Assembly: GCA_946407375.1 (NCBI GenBank) | Contig: CAMJNS010000006.1 | Location: 1-47,943 of the forward strand | DNA length: 47,943 nucleotides | Origin: an uncultured bacterium | GTDB taxonomy: Bacteria > Muiribacteriota > Ozemobacteria > Ozemobacterales > Ozemobacteraceae | Direction: 5' to 3' | Made by a program: the position numbers and the translations under genes | Shown: positions 9,963 to 47,011 of the stretch, one piece after another | Layout of the letters: the number at the start of each line of letters is the position of its first letter | How positions within the stretch are numbered: position 1 is the first letter of the stretch | The notes under the pieces: generated by a model | The model's database searches: none | Seen by the model: the letters and a program-made list of their open reading frames with translations, nothing else | What the model was told of the DNA's origin: nothing

Positions 9963-10715
9963 ATGATAAGAAGAAAAAAAACAGCTTTTACAATAGTGGA
10001 AGTAACTGTAGCATTTGCTATACTTGTTTTTATTCTTTATTTTGCTTATCAGATTTTCTTTTCTCAAACGAGAGCGGTTACACAGACTATAGATGCTTTG
10101 CAAGCTAATGAAGGATTCAGACGAGTTCTATCATTTATGGGAGATGATATTCGAGAAGCTACAAGAATTGTCAAACCAACTCCAATAAACTTGGAAGATG
10201 TTACTTCTGTAGTTACTACAACAGGAAGCATTATGATAGTTCAAAGTTCTGAAATAGATCCTAGAATTAGCTTTGATAGCCCTCTTGGAGGTCAGATAAG
10301 TCAAATTACTACTATTGAATATGAACTCGAACCTATGAATTCATCGGCTAGTGATAAAGATGGAAATGCTAATGCTGGACCAATTAGATATAAACTGATA
10401 AGAAACGCAACCATAGAAGAAAAAAGTGGAGAAAAGAACCGTCAACGCCAGGTTATTGCTGATAACATTAAAGAATTTGTGGTTTTTAGAACAGTTCGTA
10501 AGCCTTTTAAGGCCACAAATGTAGAATCGGTAAATGACAAAATAATAGAACAAATTCCATTAAGCGAAGCAGGTACAGGAAATAGCTTGATTCACGTAAG
10601 AATGTCTATTGAAAGACATCGCCAGAAAAATGAGCTTAATAGAGAGAAAATATATACTTTAACAATGAATACTAGCTTTTATAAGCGAGGAAAAGAGATT
10701 TTTCTACATCCATGA
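9963..10715 (+). CDS. Type IV pilin/pseudopilin-like protein (PilW/GspJ-like)
   Basis: RRKKTA/FTIVEVTVAFAIL class III signal; MGDDIREA motif. Confidence 0.8.
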   Translation: MIRRKKTAFTIVEVTVAFAILVFILYFAYQIFFSQTRAVTQTIDALQANEGFRRVLSFMGDDIREATRIVKPTPINLEDVTSVVTTTGSIMIVQSSEIDPRISFDSPLGGQISQITTIEYELEPMNSSASDKDGNANAGPIRYKLIRNATIEEKSGEKNRQRQVIADNIKEFVVFRTVRKPFKATNVESVNDKIIEQIPLSEAGTGNSLIHVRMSIERHRQKNELNREKIYTLTMNTSFYKRGKEIFLHP

Positions 10716-13060
10716 AACTATTCTTTAAAAATTCTAAAAAAGGCTCTGGTTATTTAGTAGTATTGTTCTTGGCAATGCTACTTTTGATTGTCTTTGGAAT
10801 TTTTGGAAGAGTTAGAAGTGGTCATCATCAACTTCAATCAAAAGATGTTAGACGTTTTATTGCTTCAAATTTAGGAGAAGCTGCTCTTAACTGTATTATT
10901 GCTGAATTAAATGCTAATAGAGCTTTTAATACACATCTCCATTATTATCCTTACCAAATGAATAAAAAAGGTTGGTATAAACCAATAAAAAAACGTGATT
11001 CTTTACTTGGTAAAATAGATAATATGACTATTAATGGAGTCCGTGACGGTATTTATAGTGGTTTTACTGATTATGGTGAATTTAAAGCCAAATTTGCTAT
11101 GAATTATGGTTCGAGAGAAAATTCTAGCACAAAAGCTCTTCGCGAATCAGAAATGTATACTAGAGTTGAAATAGTTGTTAAAATAAAAAGTGGCTGGGGT
11201 ATAAAGGAAGAAACTTATCGTAAAATAACTGCTTTATTAGAAAGAAGATATCCTGCTACAGAACATCTTTTATTTGATGGAGAAATGTTAGATCTTGGCG
11301 GTTTAGGTCCTTATCTTGAAAGAGAAAATCAGCTTAAAAGATCTAGGATATATGGTTATCACTGGATAACTTTTAATTCTGGTGGCGGAGCTTGTAAAGG
11401 TACAGAAATAATCGAAGGTGAAAAAATTGAAACACCTGGTTTAATTAGAGCTTTGATAGATGCTGATTTAGAATTTTCTAATCAGGAACGACACAAGCTA
11501 ACTAAAGATAATGATTCCATTCATGTAACTGAATTTGAAGATTTTGATGGTTATATCGTAGATGGTCCTCACGGTGCACATCCTATAAAATTTACTCGAT
11601 TACCCAAGGAACGTATTAAGAAGACTGCAGAAACCTACAAAAAGTCTTATGGAGTTATTATTGACGAAAAAACTCTTCCTGTTAGTAATTATGTTAATCC
11701 TTATGACCCAAAAACAAAATTCTATGATTTAGATTTTGGAGAATATAGAGCTGTTGCAGTTCCAAAAGATGATGACGATGAAAAGAGCAGTAGAAATACT
11801 ACAAGAGATGAAGGGGATAATGAAAGTAATGTTTCAGGAGATGCTGAAGAAGAAGTTGACGATTTGGATTCATCTGAGATAGATGACCCAGAAATAATCA
11901 AACAGCATCATGGACGTAAAATTTTGGTTTATTCTGAAGTTCCATTAAGAATATGGGGTTGTCCTGATAAGAGTATAACAATATATAGCACTAAAGATAT
12001 TGTTATTGCTGGCGATTTTAATCAGAATCCAGAAACCTCTCAAATATATAAAAATAAGTATTATCAGGAATACAAAAAGAGATTGCGTAACGGAAAATAC
12101 AACAATAAAGTTGGTGCTATGGTAATGTCTGAAGGACGTATTTTTATTGATGTCTCACAACCTAGCAAATTTACAAAAAATGAAATTAAACCATATTTCC
12201 TTTACTGTTTAGCTATGAATCTCCATCCTTCTTCATTAGATATAGAAGAAGAACTTAAAAGTGTTGTTTGCCCACCAGATCCACGAGATAGAGGTACAAT
12301 CAATGGGGTTACTTCTAGTTCTGGTGCAAATGGTTTACCTGAACCAAGGTTTGGCACTATGGCATTTCTATATAATTTCCCAGAAATTAATTCTGGTGGA
12401 AGTTATGAAGCTAATATAGAAGATTTGCAAAACTTTTTTATGCCTAGCAGTGTCACTTTAGACCCAAGTTTTGGTATAAAAGACGCTAAAGTTAGAGAAG
12501 ATATAATAGAGTACATTAAACATGCAATTCGAATGGGAGGAGATTTAACTAAAGAGGAACAGGATAGAATTTTTGATATGGCATGGAAACAGGCATTGAT
12601 TGAAGAAGAAAAAGATTATGATCCTACTTGTGGTGCATCAGGATTAATATCTGGTTTATTTAATGAGGCTGTTAAAAATGATAATGACGGATTATTCGTT
12701 CCAGAAATTACGATAAATGCTACTTTAATAAGTTCTTGCCGAAGAGCTTCAACTTGGAAGGTTGGTAATTCTAGTATTAAAGTAAAAGATGAAATTGGTG
12801 ACCCGGAAAAATATTTAAAAAAGCCTGGTTTTGTAATACAGCGTATATATGGCGGAGATATTAGAATAGGAAGAGCGAAACCAGAATATTTTGTTGATGG
12901 TTCTGATAGTGGTAAAAATATTTTAAGAAGAAGAATATGGGATAATACAAATTTAACTAATCATGATTTTAGACCTTTAGAAATACCTGCTGTACATAAT
13001 ATTTTAACTTTTTCAGAAGAACAGATTACAGCAAAAGAATATAATAACTTCAAGGGCTAA
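10712..13060 (+). CDS. Large PilX/GspK-like pilin-domain protein
   Basis: KKG/SGYLVVLFLAMLLL without Glu+5 and ASNLGEAALN, as in PilX-type N-termini. 782 aa with an internal acidic linker; ATGA-coupled to the upstream gene. Confidence 0.65.
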   Translation: MKLFFKNSKKGSGYLVVLFLAMLLLIVFGIFGRVRSGHHQLQSKDVRRFIASNLGEAALNCIIAELNANRAFNTHLHYYPYQMNKKGWYKPIKKRDSLLGKIDNMTINGVRDGIYSGFTDYGEFKAKFAMNYGSRENSSTKALRESEMYTRVEIVVKIKSGWGIKEETYRKITALLERRYPATEHLLFDGEMLDLGGLGPYLERENQLKRSRIYGYHWITFNSGGGACKGTEIIEGEKIETPGLIRALIDADLEFSNQERHKLTKDNDSIHVTEFEDFDGYIVDGPHGAHPIKFTRLPKERIKKTAETYKKSYGVIIDEKTLPVSNYVNPYDPKTKFYDLDFGEYRAVAVPKDDDDEKSSRNTTRDEGDNESNVSGDAEEEVDDLDSSEIDDPEIIKQHHGRKILVYSEVPLRIWGCPDKSITIYSTKDIVIAGDFNQNPETSQIYKNKYYQEYKKRLRNGKYNNKVGAMVMSEGRIFIDVSQPSKFTKNEIKPYFLYCLAMNLHPSSLDIEEELKSVVCPPDPRDRGTINGVTSSSGANGLPEPRFGTMAFLYNFPEINSGGSYEANIEDLQNFFMPSSVTLDPSFGIKDAKVREDIIEYIKHAIRMGGDLTKEEQDRIFDMAWKQALIEEEKDYDPTCGASGLISGLFNEAVKNDNDGLFVPEITINATLISSCRRASTWKVGNSSIKVKDEIGDPEKYLKKPGFVIQRIYGGDIRIGRAKPEYFVDGSDSGKNILRRRIWDNTNLTNHDFRPLEIPAVHNILTFSEEQITAKEYNNFKG

Positions 13061-13124
13061 TCATTATTCCCTGAATAAAAATTAATTTTTTGTTGTCTAA
13101 AAATGCCTCATCTATTAAAAAGGC

Positions 13125-13157
13125 AAAAAAAAGGCCACACTTCTATGAGGTAGCCTT
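13125..13157 (-). terminator. Intrinsic terminator of the candidate sRNA
   Basis: Minus strand AAGGCTAC-ctcatagaagt-GTGGCCTT then a T run. A second weaker hairpin, TGCCT...AGGCA-TTTTT, follows at about 13099-13125. Confidence 0.7.
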
Positions 13158-13210
13158 GATCAAGGAAAGGAATGATTGAAGACAACTGACGAATAAGTCG
13201 TGCAGTGTTG
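13125..13210 (-). ncRNA. Candidate sigma54-dependent, Hfq-type small RNA (~86 nt)
   Basis: Lies between a consensus -24/-12 promoter and a stem-loop followed by U8. Has a 5' hairpin, a central AUCA-UUCCUUUCCU-UGAU anti-SD loop, and no ORF in the track. Confidence 0.7.
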
Positions 13211-13220
13211 ATAGAGTTAG

Positions 13221-13237
13221 AGCAATTTGTGTGCCAA
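13221..13237 (-). promoter_or_regulatory. sigma54 (RpoN) -24/-12 promoter
   Basis: Minus strand TTGGCAC-ACAAA-TTGCT is an exact match to TGGCAC-N5-TTGCW; predicted +1 near 13210. Confidence 0.85.
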
Positions 13238-13448
13238 CTTTTAAAAATAATATGTTTTATTTATGTGTAAACCTATAAAAGTATGATTGCTACTCTGTTT
13301 TGAATGAAAATAATAAAACAAAAATGAATTAAATTTATAATTAATTTTTTTAAATTTATATATAATAGACATTAATTTGATGATTTTTTAACCAAATTTT
13401 ATTTGCTGTTTAAAAAATGAACAGTAAAAACTAACCACCTAAAATAAA

Positions 13449-13483
13449 AAAACCGCATTTAGGGATTCCCTAAATGCGGTTTT
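13449..13483. terminator. Intrinsic terminator after hfq
   Basis: Perfect inverted repeat AAAACCGCATTTAGGGA-T-TCCCTAAATGCGGTTTT with a longer U run on the minus strand. Confidence 0.9.
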
Positions 13484-13498
13484 CATAGACTTTATTAA

Positions 13499-13723
13499 TC
13501 AGTTACCTACAGGAAAATTGAAATTGTCAGGAAGTTGAAGAGTTGATATTGCATGCTTATAAATCAACTGTTTTTTGCCTTCTGATTCTAATAAAATTAC
13601 AAATGTATCAAAATCTAAAACTGTACCTTGAATTTGAAAGCCTTTCATTAAAAAAATCTTTACAGCTTCTTTTTGTTCTTTTAGATACTGAAGAATATTG
13701 TCTTGAATATTGATAGCTGGCAT
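13499..13723 (-). CDS. hfq: RNA chaperone Hfq
   Basis: NIQDNIL, VKIFLMKGFQIQG, FDTFVILL, QLIYKHAIST Sm1/Sm2 motifs; GGAGG RBS. Confidence 0.97.
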   Translation of the reverse strand: MPAINIQDNILQYLKEQKEAVKIFLMKGFQIQGTVLDFDTFVILLESEGKKQLIYKHAISTLQLPDNFNFPVGN

Positions 13724-13815
13724 TATAAATTCCTCCGTTTATCTTTTTGCTATTTCTAATTCATTCTATTTTATATGAAATTATAAATCTTTTCAAGAGA
13801 TAGATATAGTTTTGT

Positions 13816-16589: not shown

Positions 16590-19500
16590 TTAAGCAAGAG
16601 TAGTGGTTTGCCTCTGACTAAGTATCGTATTGAACTGATCATTATAGTCTTGCAATATCTTCAATATTCCGCGCTTAATTGATAGCAATTCATCACTTGA
16701 AGCTTTTACTTCGTGATTCTTTTTGATTTCCTGTTCTATTGCATCTTCGATTCTCTTAACCTTAGCTGCAATGAATGGTAGATATCTGCGTACAAATTCA
16801 CATTGTTTCGGGAATGGAAGAGCTTTCCAGTATTCACTGTAAACTGATCTGATTAAATAGAGACCCATTGTGTTATTTGTTAGATAATCAAAGAGTTCTA
16901 TTAATGTTCTACCCATTGGCTGTGGTTTGTCCTGCTGATACCAAAGTTCAAATTGAACTAGTTCAGAATTGAATTCTATACCGTGTTTGCCCAGTTTTTC
17001 ATCAGCCATTAGTTCATATCTAAGTAATAGATAAACCATATAGTGTTCTTCTAGTTTCTTCGCAGGAATAAGGCTGTAACTTGCCCAAAGTATTGGATAA
17101 GCGTCATTGTTCAAAACAGCATGACAGTTAATCTTTGCGTTATTCTTTCTATAAAGTGTGTGCCATTGAGCAATTGAGCTGAGATTGTATGGGGCAATAC
17201 CGTGAAGTGTCTGTAAAAGACTTATTTCGTATGGATTTCTTGTTGGTGCTATAGAAACACCTATATCGCCCTTGCGCAATGAATCTTTAATTTCTTCAGC
17301 TAGTTGGCTGTTTTCATCAGCTATACCTAAAGTTACTATATTCATACGCTGTGGCTGGTTGTTGCCACGGTCATTAAGAGTTACCAAAGGTGTTGCCTGA
17401 TTCATAAGGCTTTCTACAAGACTCTTCTTGAATCCAGCCTTAACAGAATCTTTCCAGTGAATAAAGTCTTCGATACCACCAAATAATCTACGATTTATTA
17501 TTTCTGCACAATAGTTTACTATATCTTGTTCTATAGTATTGGTTTCGTGTTCAGTATATTTATCCCAATTCTTCTTGAGATTCAACTTAACAAGGAAATC
17601 ACCTTCTATATCATTGTTAGTAAGATCACCAAGCAAATATTTATAGAAAGGTTCCACATCTTTTTCTTCAAAAATGTAAGTTCTAATAAACTTTTGAACT
17701 TTAGAATAAGGTTTGATTTTTTCTAAGCAATCTTCATAAACTCGTTCAAGATTACCGTCTTTGCTAATCTGGTTAAGTCTGAAGGTGAATACTTCCATTT
17801 TCTTACGAATATTCTGAGCTTGAACATTCAAATATTTTAGGAAATCTTCAACACAGGTTAAGCAGAACATTTCATATTCCATGTCGAAATATTCTTTACT
17901 TTCTTTCAACAGAGAATTGATGTCTTCTTTTAGCTTACTAGTAAAGAATCCTTTTATTTTAATAGTTATACCAAACATGCTATTGCTCATGTCGCTTAAT
18001 CTATTAACTTCATCAAGGTATTCTTTCTTTTCTTTTTCTAGTTTACTTTTTATTTCTACAACTTTACGTTGTAACTGATCTTTAGGATATCTTGTTAAGT
18101 ATTTTTCAAAAGCTAACAGGAAGTCTATAGAAACTTGAGCACCTAAATCAGGATTATTTACTATTTCTATAACCTTATCCCTTAAGCTTTCTCCAGCTTT
18201 CTTTGCTGCTTCTTCAAACTTAACTCTAAGCTGAGCTCTCATATCATCCTTTTTGATTCTATCATTTTTTAGCTCATTAAGTTGGCGTTCAATAAATACA
18301 TGGTCTTTTTCGCCTTGCTTTTGTTTTGAAACCTTAACAGAATGGTAACGAGGATTGTCCCAGTATTCCTTTCTGTCGACTATTTCTTTGCTCATAGCTA
18401 ACAGACCTTCAGGAGTAAGGTCTATTACGCTAGGATTGTTTTCTGCAAAGTCCTGAACCATTGAATCTAACAAAATCTTGTCTACTGAAAGTTTTAACCA
18501 GTAGGTAACATCCATAGCTAGTTTATATGTATAAAGAGTTCGTATAATATCTAATGGATAATAGAAGCTCTTAAAACCAGCAGAACTGAAACATTTAAGT
18601 TGTTTCCCTTCAAGGTCTGAATTCAATTGACCTAAAATCTGCGAAGCATTATCTAACATTGAGTTCTGAGCTTGTCGCAATTGTGTGGCCAATTTTGTAA
18701 AAATCAGTTCAGAAGCGATAGCGTAATAAGTTGGAATATCATCCATATTGCTTGTGCCTAATAGATAGCACTGATCAAATGGAGGTTCTTCACAAATGGT
18801 ACCAAAAGTATTTGTATCATTACTCTTACCGATTGGACCGTAATTAACCATGAATTTATTACGTCTATCTTGAGATATAATATCTTTTGCAGATTGAGTT
18901 GGTGGAAACTTTTCTTTGTTCATAAAGTAATAGGTTTCTGCTAATGCAGCATAACCGTTACCTTCTAATCTGCCTGTAGAGTTAACATTAGGATCTATAG
19001 CAATCTGAGTAAATGCTTCAGGGGTTAATTCAATACCTATAATAGAGGGTTTGCCTTTTCCTCCTGATAATTGATAGTAGGCCATCTTTAATAGATATGC
19101 CATATCCATAAACATACCAGCACCAGAACCACCACACATTGAACCTACAACATAAAATTCAGGTGTTAAAATCTGACCCTGTTTATTGGTAAGAGGAACA
19201 ATAATATCGTCTTGATTGACATTACCACGGGCCATAATTTTGCTGATTTTACTTTTTAATAAAGAGAAAATCTTTTGAATATCAACAAATATGCCAAAAC
19301 GACCTGTAAATCTAAATTGGTGAGCACCTTGGCTTATTTGTCCTATGTATGATTTTAACTTTTGTGGGAACCATTCATATAAATAGTTATATGTGTCGGT
19401 ATCTAGATTGTTAGTTATCTGACCAGCATTTTGAATGTTAATTTGGTGATATTCGCTTTCTGTAAGTTTTACAGCACGTTCTTCATCTTCTTTTTCTGAT

Positions 19501-19712
19501 TTGCTTGCATCAAATATATCTGTATCTATACAGAGTAAATCAATAAAATCTGGTAATGAAGGTTCTGCTCCAATTTGTGCATAGGCTTTCTTTATTTGTG
19601 GACTTTTTAGGAAGGTTTCTTTGAAATTCATCAAAGCTTTTTTCCCTGTTCCACCAAGACCAACTATTAATGCTGGATTTAAAGCGATTCTATTTTCAAA
19701 ATTAACACTCAT
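16590..19712 (-). CDS. Tubulin-like (Tubulin_2 family) GTPase-domain protein with a long helical C-terminus
   Basis: PALIVGLGGTG, LCIDTD, GAHQFRFTGR, VVGSMCGGSGAGMFMD, NGYAALAE and PPFDQCYL match the Tubulin_2 pattern; about 650 aa of helical/coiled-coil tail. Confidence 0.88.
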   Translation of the reverse strand: MSVNFENRIALNPALIVGLGGTGKKALMNFKETFLKSPQIKKAYAQIGAEPSLPDFIDLLCIDTDIFDASKSEKEDEERAVKLTESEYHQINIQNAGQITNNLDTDTYNYLYEWFPQKLKSYIGQISQGAHQFRFTGRFGIFVDIQKIFSLLKSKISKIMARGNVNQDDIIVPLTNKQGQILTPEFYVVGSMCGGSGAGMFMDMAYLLKMAYYQLSGGKGKPSIIGIELTPEAFTQIAIDPNVNSTGRLEGNGYAALAETYYFMNKEKFPPTQSAKDIISQDRRNKFMVNYGPIGKSNDTNTFGTICEEPPFDQCYLLGTSNMDDIPTYYAIASELIFTKLATQLRQAQNSMLDNASQILGQLNSDLEGKQLKCFSSAGFKSFYYPLDIIRTLYTYKLAMDVTYWLKLSVDKILLDSMVQDFAENNPSVIDLTPEGLLAMSKEIVDRKEYWDNPRYHSVKVSKQKQGEKDHVFIERQLNELKNDRIKKDDMRAQLRVKFEEAAKKAGESLRDKVIEIVNNPDLGAQVSIDFLLAFEKYLTRYPKDQLQRKVVEIKSKLEKEKKEYLDEVNRLSDMSNSMFGITIKIKGFFTSKLKEDINSLLKESKEYFDMEYEMFCLTCVEDFLKYLNVQAQNIRKKMEVFTFRLNQISKDGNLERVYEDCLEKIKPYSKVQKFIRTYIFEEKDVEPFYKYLLGDLTNNDIEGDFLVKLNLKKNWDKYTEHETNTIEQDIVNYCAEIINRRLFGGIEDFIHWKDSVKAGFKKSLVESLMNQATPLVTLNDRGNNQPQRMNIVTLGIADENSQLAEEIKDSLRKGDIGVSIAPTRNPYEISLLQTLHGIAPYNLSSIAQWHTLYRKNNAKINCHAVLNNDAYPILWASYSLIPAKKLEEHYMVYLLLRYELMADEKLGKHGIEFNSELVQFELWYQQDKPQPMGRTLIELFDYLTNNTMGLYLIRSVYSEYWKALPFPKQCEFVRRYLPFIAAKVKRIEDAIEQEIKKNHEVKASSDELLSIKRGILKILQDYNDQFNTILSQRQTTTLA

Positions 19713-44853: not shown

Positions 44854-46326
44854 ATGTCTGTAAAAATAGCAATTGTAGATGACGAGGAAATGATTCAATG
44901 GACTTTAAAAGAAGCCATGGAATCAGAGGGGTATAAGGTTGAAACATTTGATAATGGTAAGGATTTTCTTACCTATTTCAAAGAGTATGGGGCTGATATT
45001 GTATTTTTAGATATTCAGTTGCCAGATAGTAATGGATTAGAGCTTCTTCCAGAAATAATTCATATAGACCCTGAAAGCATAGTTGTTGTTATGACTGCTT
45101 TTGGAGATGTTGAAACCGCAGTTACGGCTATGAAAAAAGGGGCTTATGATTATCTGGCTAAGCCTTATAGTATTGAAGAAGTTAATTTGCTGATAAAGAA
45201 GATTATTCAAACTAATCTTGTAAAAAGTCAGTTACAGCATTATCAAGAAAAGTTAGAATCTCATTTTTCCCACATTTTAGGTGAAAATTACAGCATAAAA
45301 CTTCTTAGAGAGCATATTGCAATGGCTGCTAAATCAGACCATACTACAGTTTTAATACGTGGTGAGTCTGGAACAGGCAAAGAATTAGTAGCTCGACAGA
45401 TACATTTCCAAAGCGCTAGAGCAGATAAACCTTTTATAGATGTTAATGCTGCTGCAGTAAGTGGAACCCTTTTGGAATCAGAATTGTTCGGTCACGAAAA
45501 GGGAGCTTTTACAGATGCTCAAAAACAGAAAAAAGGTCTTTTTGAGCTAGCTAATGGCGGAACTTTATTCCTAGATGAAATTGGAGATTTGGATGCTTCC
45601 TTACAAGTTAAGCTATTAAGAGTTCTTCAAGAAAGAAAATTTAGAAGAGTAGGCGGAACAACAGATATACATGTTGATGTTAGAATTATTTCCGCGACAA
45701 ATGCTAATCTTGAAGAAAAAATGCAAGAAGGTTCTTTAAGAAAAGATTTGTTCTATAGATTAAATGTTTTTACTATAAATATCGCTCCTCTTAGAGAAAG
45801 AAAAGATGATATTGTTTTGTTGGCAAAAAGCTTTCTTGATGAATATCGTAAAGAATTTTCCAAAGAAAATATTACTGGTTTTTCAGAAGAAGCCTTAACG
45901 TTAATGCAGTGTTATGATTATCCAGGTAATGTCAGGGAACTACGAAATATTATAGAACGCGCTGTTTTATTAGAAACTACGAATCTTATAAGACCAGCTA
46001 ACTTACCTGATGAACTTAGAAAAAATAACAATAGTATTGAATTTAAGGGATCACAGAAAGTTGAACAATTTACTCCTGTTAAAGCTCAACCTAGTGATAA
46101 TTCTATAAAAAAAGAAGAAGATGTTACCATTCCCTTTGCAGATGATAAGCCTTGGCATAGGAAAGATTTTAATTTTAAAGAATATATTGATTCTGTTGAA
46201 AAAAAGATTATTGAAGAAGTTTTAGTTGAAACAGGTGGAAAGAAAACTAAAGCTGCTGAAATACTTGGTCTTTCAAGATTTGCTTTAAGGCATCAACTGA
46301 AAAAGCATGGTATGGATAGTGAATAG
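44854..46326 (+). CDS. NtrC/AtoC-family sigma54-dependent response regulator
   Basis: Receiver (VDDE, FLDIQLP, LAKP), AAA+ (GESGTGKE, ESELFGHEKGAFTDA, FLDEIG, DLFYRL, YPGNVREL), Fis-type HTH. Confidence 0.96.
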   Translation: MSVKIAIVDDEEMIQWTLKEAMESEGYKVETFDNGKDFLTYFKEYGADIVFLDIQLPDSNGLELLPEIIHIDPESIVVVMTAFGDVETAVTAMKKGAYDYLAKPYSIEEVNLLIKKIIQTNLVKSQLQHYQEKLESHFSHILGENYSIKLLREHIAMAAKSDHTTVLIRGESGTGKELVARQIHFQSARADKPFIDVNAAAVSGTLLESELFGHEKGAFTDAQKQKKGLFELANGGTLFLDEIGDLDASLQVKLLRVLQERKFRRVGGTTDIHVDVRIISATNANLEEKMQEGSLRKDLFYRLNVFTINIAPLRERKDDIVLLAKSFLDEYRKEFSKENITGFSEEALTLMQCYDYPGNVRELRNIIERAVLLETTNLIRPANLPDELRKNNNSIEFKGSQKVEQFTPVKAQPSDNSIKKEEDVTIPFADDKPWHRKDFNFKEYIDSVEKKIIEEVLVETGGKKTKAAEILGLSRFALRHQLKKHGMDSE

Positions 46327-46510: not shown

Positions 46511-46526
46511 TGGCATATTTTTTGCA
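46511..46526 (+). promoter_or_regulatory. sigma54 -24/-12 promoter upstream of the EIIA gene
   Basis: TGGCAT-ATTTT-TTGCA about 35 bp before ATG 46562. A sigma70-like TTGACT(46477)...TATATA lies just upstream. Confidence 0.7.
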
Positions 46527-46561: not shown

Positions 46562-47011
46562 ATGATTTCAGAATTACTTCAGGATAATTTTATAGATTTA
46601 CATCTTGATGTTCCTGATAAAGCTACAGCAATAAATAAACTCTCAGAAATGCTTTGCGGTTCAGGTAAAGTTAGTGATCAAACTCATTTTGTAAGTGCAG
46701 TTCTTGAAAGAGAAAAGCTTGGAAGTACAGCAATTGGTGCTGGGATTGCTATCCCTCATGCTCGTGCTAATACTGTTAATGAAGTTTCAATAGCTTTTGC
46801 TCGTGCTTCTCACGGAATAGATTTTAATTCTGTTGATGGTGACCCAGTAAATTTAATTTTCTTGTTGGCTGCACCAGTTGAATCCGGTAGTCTTTATCTA
46901 AAGCTTTTGGCACGTATTTCTAGACTGTTACGTTACCAAGATTTAGTAGATGATTTAAAGAAAGCTACAACTAAAGAAGAAGTAATTAAGATAATAGCTG
47001 CTAAAGAATAA
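46562..47011 (+). CDS. ptsN: PTS EIIA (Ntr/Fru family)
   Basis: LEREKLGSTAIGAGIAIPHAR with the phospho-His, GIDFNSVDGDPVNLIFLL, LKLLARISRLL; no IIB/IIC partner seen. Confidence 0.85.
   Translation: MISELLQDNFIDLHLDVPDKATAINKLSEMLCGSGKVSDQTHFVSAVLEREKLGSTAIGAGIAIPHARANTVNEVSIAFARASHGIDFNSVDGDPVNLIFLLAAPVESGSLYLKLLARISRLLRYQDLVDDLKKATTKEEVIKIIAAKE

Follow-up and report, generated by a model that had tools for sequence, protein, structure and literature searches.

Does the segment directly downstream of hfq in an uncultured bacterium of the family Ozemobacteraceae encode a small RNA (sRNA) and, if so, what switches it on and what does it act upon? The window analysed here is the whole stretch of 47,943 nucleotides (nt) that makes up positions 1 to 47,943 of contig CAMJNS010000006.1 (GenBank assembly GCA_946407375.1, forward strand), and a sequence-only reading of it had singled out positions 13125-13237 as a minus-strand sRNA gene with a sigma-54 (RpoN) promoter and an anti-Shine-Dalgarno loop. 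That observation was confirmed as correct and is strengthened by the comparison with relatives, and the interpretation attached to it is supported, each of its computationally testable parts having held. On balance, the locus is probably a real, independently transcribed sRNA gene of ~86 nt, found in one Riflebacteria family only, driven by sigma-54 and an enhancer, and acting by Hfq-assisted pairing at ribosome-binding sites. A new sRNA family confined to one family of Riflebacteria (Ozemobacteraceae-type), with a sigma-54 promoter and conserved enhancer sites, is well supported by comparison of the loci, and an Hfq-assisted anti-Shine-Dalgarno regulator is its likely mechanism. The features of the locus are as follows.

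13221-13237, minus strand: sigma-54 (-24/-12) promoter TTGGCAC-ACAAA-TTGCT, called from the exact consensus, its conservation and the presence of rpoN in the genome
13125-13210, minus strand: predicted sRNA transcript, ~86 nt, with +1 placed by promoter geometry and the 3′ end taken as the end of the U-tract
13182-13208, minus strand: 5′ hairpin from the predicted fold, with a CTG...CAG outer stem and an ACGA/TCGT inner stem
13159-13180, minus strand: CU-rich core TTCAATCATTCCTTTCCTTGAT, 22 nt, the presumed seed, called from its near-invariance and mostly unpaired in the predicted fold
13125-13157, minus strand: intrinsic terminator, a bulged GC-rich hairpin followed by U8, called from fold and covariation
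13406-13424, minus strand: dyad site 1 of the upstream region, CTGTTCATTTTTTAAACAG, which may bind an enhancer-binding protein and stands ~185 nt before the -24 GG
13378-13394, minus strand: upstream site 2, TGGTTAAAAAATCATCA (TGKTTAAAAAATNWTCA), a candidate protein site 29-30 nt downstream of site 1
13499-13723, minus strand: hfq, 74 amino acids (aa), the conserved upstream neighbour (Pfam PF17209, Hfq, 84.7 bits)

Promoter, upstream sites and sigma-54 machinery

The exact RpoN promoter claimed for the minus strand reads TTGGCAC-ACAAA-TTGCT at 13237-13221, the canonical spacing of the -24 GG and the -12 GC being matched exactly by TGGCAC-N5-TTGC (13236-13221). With the C of this GC at -12, +1 falls on 13210, at the base of the 5′ hairpin, where the start had been predicted. 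By window statistics alone the match is not remarkable: at ≤1 mismatch the sigma-54 pattern is found at two sites (0.98 expected), and two or more sites occur in 21 of 100 shuffles. Across the 2.97-Mb genome (33.7% G+C) the exact consensus occurs three times and the looser TGGCAY-N5-TTGCW seven times, against none for the reversed pattern in both cases. The decisive support for an RNA gene is conservation in relatives, rather than these within-window statistics. GGCAY-N5-TTGC lies upstream of the core in all 47 distinct loci, at a GG-to-core distance of 54-56 nt in 43 of them, and the GGCA and TTGC letters are unchanged in 47/47, with free variation both in the 5-nt spacer and between -12 and +1. 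The invariance of the -24/-12 letters amid variable flanks therefore indicates selection on the -24 and -12 elements themselves.

An inverted repeat, CTGTT-N9-AACAG, had been pointed out at enhancer distance in the AT-rich gap between hfq and the promoter; it was found at 13424-13406 and is one of several conserved upstream dyads. In all seven species of the genus, TGTTYA-N5-TNNACA is present at -177 to -200, and site 2 is likewise aligned and conserved in 7/7, six of which fit the loose 17-mer pattern. These two shared blocks stand just past the hfq terminator, and the other ~140 nt of the spacer have diverged among the seven species. Most loci of other genera carry 17-bp dyads of the same type ~110, 75 and 45 nt upstream of the GG, the second and third being CTGTATAAWTATTTATCA-like and TGTGCAAAATCGCAC-like. 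NtrC-family enhancer-binding proteins typically use tandem dyads at distances like these, and we infer protein binding at sites 1 and 2.

The sigma-54 machinery itself is in place. rpoN, whose presence had been left to be checked, was identified in a 496-aa open frame (PF04552, 196.8 bits), together with five true sigma-54 activators (PF00158 matches >229 bits), both of the two that were checked having the REC-AAA-HTH layout. Orthologues of one REC-AAA-HTH activator (contig C128) at ≥62% identity were found only in the family, and relatives at 45-57% identity occur in three families without the RNA. Across the phylum, hfq was detected in 85 and rpoN in 77 of 87 genomes.

Elsewhere in the window, a second sigma-54-type promoter (TGGCATATTTTTTGCA, 46511-46526, plus strand) lies directly downstream of a gene for a REC-AAA-HTH sigma-54 activator (44854-46326, plus strand) and 36 nt before a phosphotransferase system (PTS) EIIA-2 (PtsN-like) gene (46562-47011). 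Further sigma-54-type promoters precede GroES-like and Flp-pilin-like genes on contigs C11 and C41 of the same genome, these two names being a reading of the first codons with no family search behind them.

Fold, conservation and distribution of the RNA

Read as RNA, 13210-13122 has a predicted fold of -19.2 kcal/mol, compared with -12.8 ± 2.8 kcal/mol for shuffled sequences (z = -2.28; 2/200 shuffles equally stable). The 5′ hairpin is present as it had been described, at 13208-13182 on the minus strand. It is mostly conserved in sequence, the inner stem differing in alignments of divergent genera, and its 10 pairs include two changed on both sides, two varying on one side only and two that never vary. 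The core that follows is far more constant: 21 of the 22 columns of TTCAATCATTCCTTTCCTTGAT are identical in all 40 aligned distinct sequences, and a single sequence has G at the 21st position. TTCAATCATTCCTTTCCTTGAT is complementary to AAGGAAAGGAA-type ribosome-binding sites, and its plus-strand complement resembles a Shine-Dalgarno sequence followed by ATG. A short stem exposing a CU-rich loop had also been proposed here; the part that stands is that TTCCTTTCCT, within 13180-13159, forms the loop of a 4-bp stem in the minimum-energy fold, and for the stem covariation is neutral.

The terminator, which had been read as ending in U8, consists of a hairpin at 13157-13133 and T8 at 13132-13125. 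A simple terminator scan of the window did not pick it up because its stem is bulged, and it is called here because fold and covariation agree on it. Covariation among relatives had been suggested as a check, and all six modelled terminator pairs (6/6) show compensatory changes on both sides across genera, in a region where insertions and deletions of varying length otherwise set the genera apart; the U-tract of the aligned loci ranges from 6 to 10 T. Over the modelled structure as a whole, pairing is seen in 93.8% of cells; shuffles give 83.0%, with none of 500 as high as the observed value, and pairing drops to 22-58% of cells when the partners are slid by 1-3 columns. These covariation statistics were obtained on a covariance-model-fitted alignment of 40 distinct rows, an alignment that leans towards the structure it is given. 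Misalignment of the variable hairpins left RNAalifold with an almost empty consensus (-0.93 kcal/mol) on a plain MAFFT alignment, which was replaced by the model-fitted one.

Only the transcribed part went into the covariance model (40 distinct sequences, 85 positions, 16 pairs), and the promoter could therefore be used as an independent check. The model matches the window at 13124-13212 with 96.9 bits and identifies a single copy in each of 47 of the 50 family genomes as well as in the window's own genome; in 36 genomes from ten other families of the phylum it found no match. Three family genomes lack a match: in G054 the contig stops 215 nt past hfq, in G057 the linked hfq copy is itself absent from the assembly, and in G019 the contig stops ~350 nt past hfq with no RNA seen there. 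The misses in G054 and G057 are assembly gaps. One locus (L028, from G007) was left out of the model alignment, its core carrying one further change and its U-tract being unclear, and it matches the model weakly (37.8 bits).

Other searches gave the same picture. With blastn, 13100-13260 matched 22 of 24 genomes of the family, and the only match outside it was weak and 27 nt long. The exact 21-mer of the core was found in 47 public contigs in a scan of 185,579 species genomes, and 43 of these 47 have the full layout of promoter, hairpin, core and terminator, mostly under the titles Candidatus Riflebacteria, Rifleibacteriota, Ozemobacteraceae, Ozemobacter or Rifleibacterium. Within the window's genus, the copies come from ruminant, reindeer and chicken gut assemblies. 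The other four contigs, titled Kiritimatiellae, Flavobacterium, Peribacillus and Gammaproteobacteria, show none of the remaining features; they were rejected as chance matches and excluded from all counts. No viral contig carried the 21-mer when a mobile or phage origin was checked. Conservation in relatives, which the sequence-only reading had made a point of, thus extends to promoter, hairpins and CU-rich core across 15 genera, with a covarying terminator.

Four loci with a complete Riflebacteria-type RNA locus (L030, L055, L056, L060) lie on contigs titled Methylomirabilis, Avigastranaerophilus or Erysipelotrichia, and these records may be mislabelled or mis-binned.

The hfq gene had been credited with a terminator of its own, and one with 17 pairs is present at 13484-13448. 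A same-strand hfq lies ≤700 nt upstream of the RNA in 42 of the 47 distinct loci. One genus has hfq inverted and downstream of the RNA, and in two loci no hfq is found within 1.4 kb; the RNA promoter is kept throughout. The window's own genome has two Hfq paralogues. Most genomes of the family encode a second, longer protein with an Hfq domain (~55 bits), which is 276 aa here (contig C152, 1320-2150).

Candidate targets, mechanism and competing explanations

Candidate targets were scored by the duplex energy of RNA nt 27-56 against 2126 start regions of this genome (mean -11.1 kcal/mol), gene names being taken from Pfam assignments. The top-scoring start regions are as follows.

oraS, D-ornithine aminomutase small subunit, contig C9, gene start 23362: -28.7 kcal/mol
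ahbA-like siroheme decarboxylase, contig C53, gene start 13292: -28.0 kcal/mol
hutU: -26.9 kcal/mol
pgm, phosphoglucomutase/phosphomannomutase, contig C3, gene start 70136: -26.0 kcal/mol

The pgm gene is present only in the window's genus and one other. In five species of the window's genus its 5′ untranslated region contains a 19-mer, 17-19 of its positions pairing with RNA nt 38-56. Nine of the 11 substitutions in this 19-mer are G.U-compatible, and the duplexes range from -21.1 to -29.9 kcal/mol, against -15.4 to -21.2 kcal/mol for the reversed seed. The ahbA-like gene, located between a radical-SAM/SPASM gene and an ahbB-like gene, retains (TG)ATCAAGGAAGGA-type sites in several genera, and 22 of 30 orthologous start regions reach ≤-18.4 kcal/mol and 17 of 30 reach ≤-22 kcal/mol. 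For oraS, which is followed by an oraE-like gene, all 29 of 29 orthologues reach ≤-18.4 kcal/mol. As background, 41 and 17 of the 379 start regions examined in non-genus loci reach the same two thresholds, roughly half of the 41 being oraS or ahbA-like orthologues themselves. Taken together, the pairings tentatively suggest pgm (in its own genus), the ahbA-like gene (in several genera) and oraS as targets; all three are leads rather than findings.

Two other forms of pairing were looked for. Feedback on an activator, as between Qrr and luxO, was rejected for the C128 REC-AAA-HTH gene: its start region ranks 28th of 2126, 11 of 30 orthologues reach ≤-18.4 kcal/mol (mean -17.6 kcal/mol), and no conserved pairing is apparent, so that it doubles as a negative control for the target analysis. 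In a search of 51 family genomes for a near-perfect antisense partner (18-mer complement, ≤3 mismatches), the sites with 0-1 mismatch among the matches listed were RNA genes only. Total counts exceeded those of the reversed control because of purine-rich ribosome-binding sites.

The mechanism that these elements suggest would begin with an enhancer-binding protein on the conserved upstream 17-bp dyads, activating sigma-54 RNA polymerase at the -24/-12 promoter. Transcription would start close to 13210, where the base of a protective 5′ hairpin lies, and end at the intrinsic terminator, leaving a U-tail by which Hfq could hold the RNA. A 3′ U-tail is the usual Hfq handle. The 22-nt CU-rich stretch between the hairpins would then base-pair with several mRNAs at their purine-rich ribosome-binding regions and, assisted by the Hfq from the neighbouring gene, most likely repress their translation. 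What we infer from this arrangement is the start at +1, the dependence on Hfq, which activator acts and on what signal, which mRNAs are targeted and in which direction they are regulated.

Several points weigh against this account. The 4-bp stem presenting TTCCTTTCCT never varies in the 40 rows and is hence neither supported nor refuted by covariation; Hfq binding is presumed from how the locus is laid out and what adjoins it; and within this genome the strict dyad pattern shows no enrichment (4 sites, compared with 12 for the reversed control). Among the start regions, five at ≤-25 kcal/mol, compared with 0-2 for seven control seeds, amount to a marginal excess, the best control-seed energy being -27.0 kcal/mol against -28.7 kcal/mol for the real seed. 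The candidates were chosen from this genome's own top matches, orthologous start regions are not mutually independent, and the oraS signal is owed largely to an ordinary GAAAGGAA Shine-Dalgarno sequence. RNA libraries also bear on the start. Seven runs contained part of 12900-13800, and four were compared as assembled contigs only, from which no start, strand or level can be read. Two (X1 and X2) contain just an hfq piece (13476-13733), and a third (X3) has the promoter and upstream spacer of a relative with the RNA itself absent. The fourth (X5) gave a contig of depth 3.4 that covers 13125-13210 without differences and ends at the U-tract, yet extends 66 nt further upstream through a relative's promoter. 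This contig counts against a start at 13210 or, at best, has no bearing on it; both of its ends could be explained by DNA carry-over together with strain differences in poly-T length. The library pattern as a whole is what would be expected from DNA carry-over or read-through, not from a primary transcript beginning at +1.

Four other explanations were weighed. According to the first, the RNA is a cis-acting leader or attenuator: the sigma-54 promoter would serve a downstream polysaccharide deacetylase gene, and the terminator would be a conditional stop. Synteny gives this idea its appeal, since in 32 of the 47 distinct loci a PF01522 deacetylase gene follows in the same orientation ≤700 nt downstream, in many of them starting only 17-57 nt past the U-tract. 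However, none of the seven species in the window's genus carries it at this position, a convergent 782-aa gene taking its place, and it is also missing there in several other genera, yet RNA and promoter are fully kept in all these genera. Moreover, an extended -10-like TGNTATATT element ~10 nt past the U-tract in about ten loci, with close variants in others, suggests that the deacetylase gene has a promoter of its own. Synteny and TGNTATATT therefore make a leader unlikely. The strength and covariation of the terminator, a minimum-energy fold without alternative pairing, and a 22-nt core nearly constant across genomes of very different G+C content, which is atypical of leaders, also speak against it, and we consider it improbable.

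An equally small probability attaches to a protein-titrating RNA, in which the CU-rich stretch would sequester an RNA-binding protein, or Hfq, rather than pair with mRNAs. Near-invariance over 22 nt is more than a single mRNA duplex would need, and sigma-54-dependent decoy RNAs exist, GlmY being a decoy for RapZ according to the available part of PMC13501541. Decoy RNAs usually have repeated sites, however, whereas this RNA carries its motif once and is itself found once per genome; complementarity of the stretch to ribosome-binding sites also speaks against a decoy, and the wobble-preserving substitutions over 19 nt of the pgm leader point to RNA-RNA pairing.

It is distinctly improbable that the RNA is real and arises from something other than the sigma-54 site, either by read-through from hfq or processing, or from a sigma-70 promoter in the AT-rich spacer. 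The RNA-library contigs that span a relative's spacer and promoter, one of which joins promoter to RNA, would fit such an origin, as would a weak sigma-70-like match (13271-13244, 9/12 letters). Matches of this kind are nevertheless at the level of shuffles (9 found, 9.7 expected), the 17-pair hfq terminator is strong, and the hfq contigs of two runs end there. The constancy of the -24/-12 letters in 47/47 loci amid variable flanks makes sense only if the promoter is used, and the promoter persists where hfq is no longer upstream. Finally, a very small protein or a functionless chance arrangement is scarcely credible: a TTG-initiated frame of ~25 codons can be read by eye through core and terminator, but the RNA has no ATG and no Shine-Dalgarno sequence before the TTG, its terminator region tolerates insertions and deletions of varying length, and all core positions, third codon positions included, are conserved, while chance is excluded by one copy in 47/50 family genomes.

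Within the preferred explanation, that of an Hfq-assisted sRNA pairing at ribosome-binding sites, a bolder version can be imagined, which we regard as possible but rather unlikely. In it the RNA and a dedicated enhancer-binding protein would form a family-wide, Qrr-like master switch, one signal acting through one seed on many mRNAs to change metabolism globally. If true, the 22-nt seed would be near-invariant since different parts of it pair with many mRNAs, and the switch would cover alternative heme synthesis (ahbA-like), amino-acid fermentation (oraS and others) and sugar-phosphate/envelope-polysaccharide metabolism (pgm and the deacetylase neighbourhood).

Relation to known systems and neighbouring genes

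The sequence-only reading had not recognised a known family, and Rfam 15 gave no match at gathering score in the whole window, including Qrr, GlmY and GlmZ. In E-value mode, 13125-13237 returned sub-threshold noise only, the best score being 17.3 bits against a gathering score of 41. This was mmgR/suhB (RF00519), the only Rfam model to align along most of the RNA (13118-13190), which likewise describes a short RNA whose unpaired C/U-rich motif precedes an intrinsic terminator. Membership was rejected: 17.3 bits against 41 (E = 0.85) is at chance level, and both promoter type and taxon differ.

Two sigma-54-linked systems invite closer comparison. The Qrr RNAs of Vibrio are Hfq-dependent and have a long invariant core. 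According to the available parts of the sources, sigma-54 and LuxO-P activate these sRNAs, which repress at the ribosome-binding site and feed back on luxO (PMC13501541), repression being by pairing at that site (PMC10162802), and V. cholerae and V. harveyi have four or five copies (PMC13501541). The likeness lies in a sigma-54 promoter for an RNA and in pairing at the ribosome-binding site, the latter predicted here. The RNA described here differs in having no Rfam match, a single copy per genome and a host in a different phylum; and while Qrr represses luxO, no conserved pairing was found here with the mRNA of the one activator tested. In the second system, glmY is sigma-54-dependent and GlmZ activates its target. 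GlmY and GlmZ are described, in the available parts of PMC2377431 and PMC13501541, as small RNAs controlling glmS, the mRNA of an amino-sugar enzyme. The resemblance is that of a sugar-phosphate/amino-sugar enzyme mRNA, a phosphohexomutase mRNA being the best candidate in the window's genus. This candidate is genus-specific, however, there is again no Rfam match, and GlmY is a protein decoy and GlmZ an activator, whereas the layout here suggests anti-Shine-Dalgarno pairing. The RNA belongs to neither the Qrr nor the GlmY/GlmZ family.

A literature search for the phylum name with 'small RNA' returned nothing, and among the matches listed for papers naming the phylum (supplementary files excluded) none was RNA-themed by title. 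Within the literature searched, this would be the first regulatory RNA described for Candidatus Riflebacteria, and an independent addition to the design that combines sigma-54 with an sRNA in Vibrio and enterobacteria. It is an unusually clean case, in which promoter, enhancer sites, seed and terminator are all legible from comparative sequence, and it would offer a way into sigma-54 signalling and regulation through Hfq in a lineage for which metagenomes (rumen/gut, digesters, aquifers) are the only source of knowledge. The 22-nt core could serve as a specific probe for these bacteria in metatranscriptomes, and the covariance model could be converted into a new Rfam family.

Among the neighbouring genes, the convergent one (10712-13060, plus strand) encodes the 782-aa protein, which has no Pfam match. 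This protein (cluster c2) is conserved beside the RNA/deacetylase locus in many genera (including loci L039, L053 and L059), and upstream of its gene lie genes with N-terminal methylation (pseudopilin-type) motifs. On the other side, just upstream of the pair formed by hfq and a gene for a tetratricopeptide-repeat (TPR) protein, 16590-19712 (minus strand) encodes a 1040-aa protein with an N-terminal Tubulin_2 domain (PF13809, 176.7 bits). In the genus with hfq inverted downstream (g8; loci L012 and L015), the next gene after the RNA encodes a PCC-domain protein (PF03479), and the start region of that gene, GATCAAGGGAGGAA, is complementary to the RNA core (-24.3 kcal/mol).

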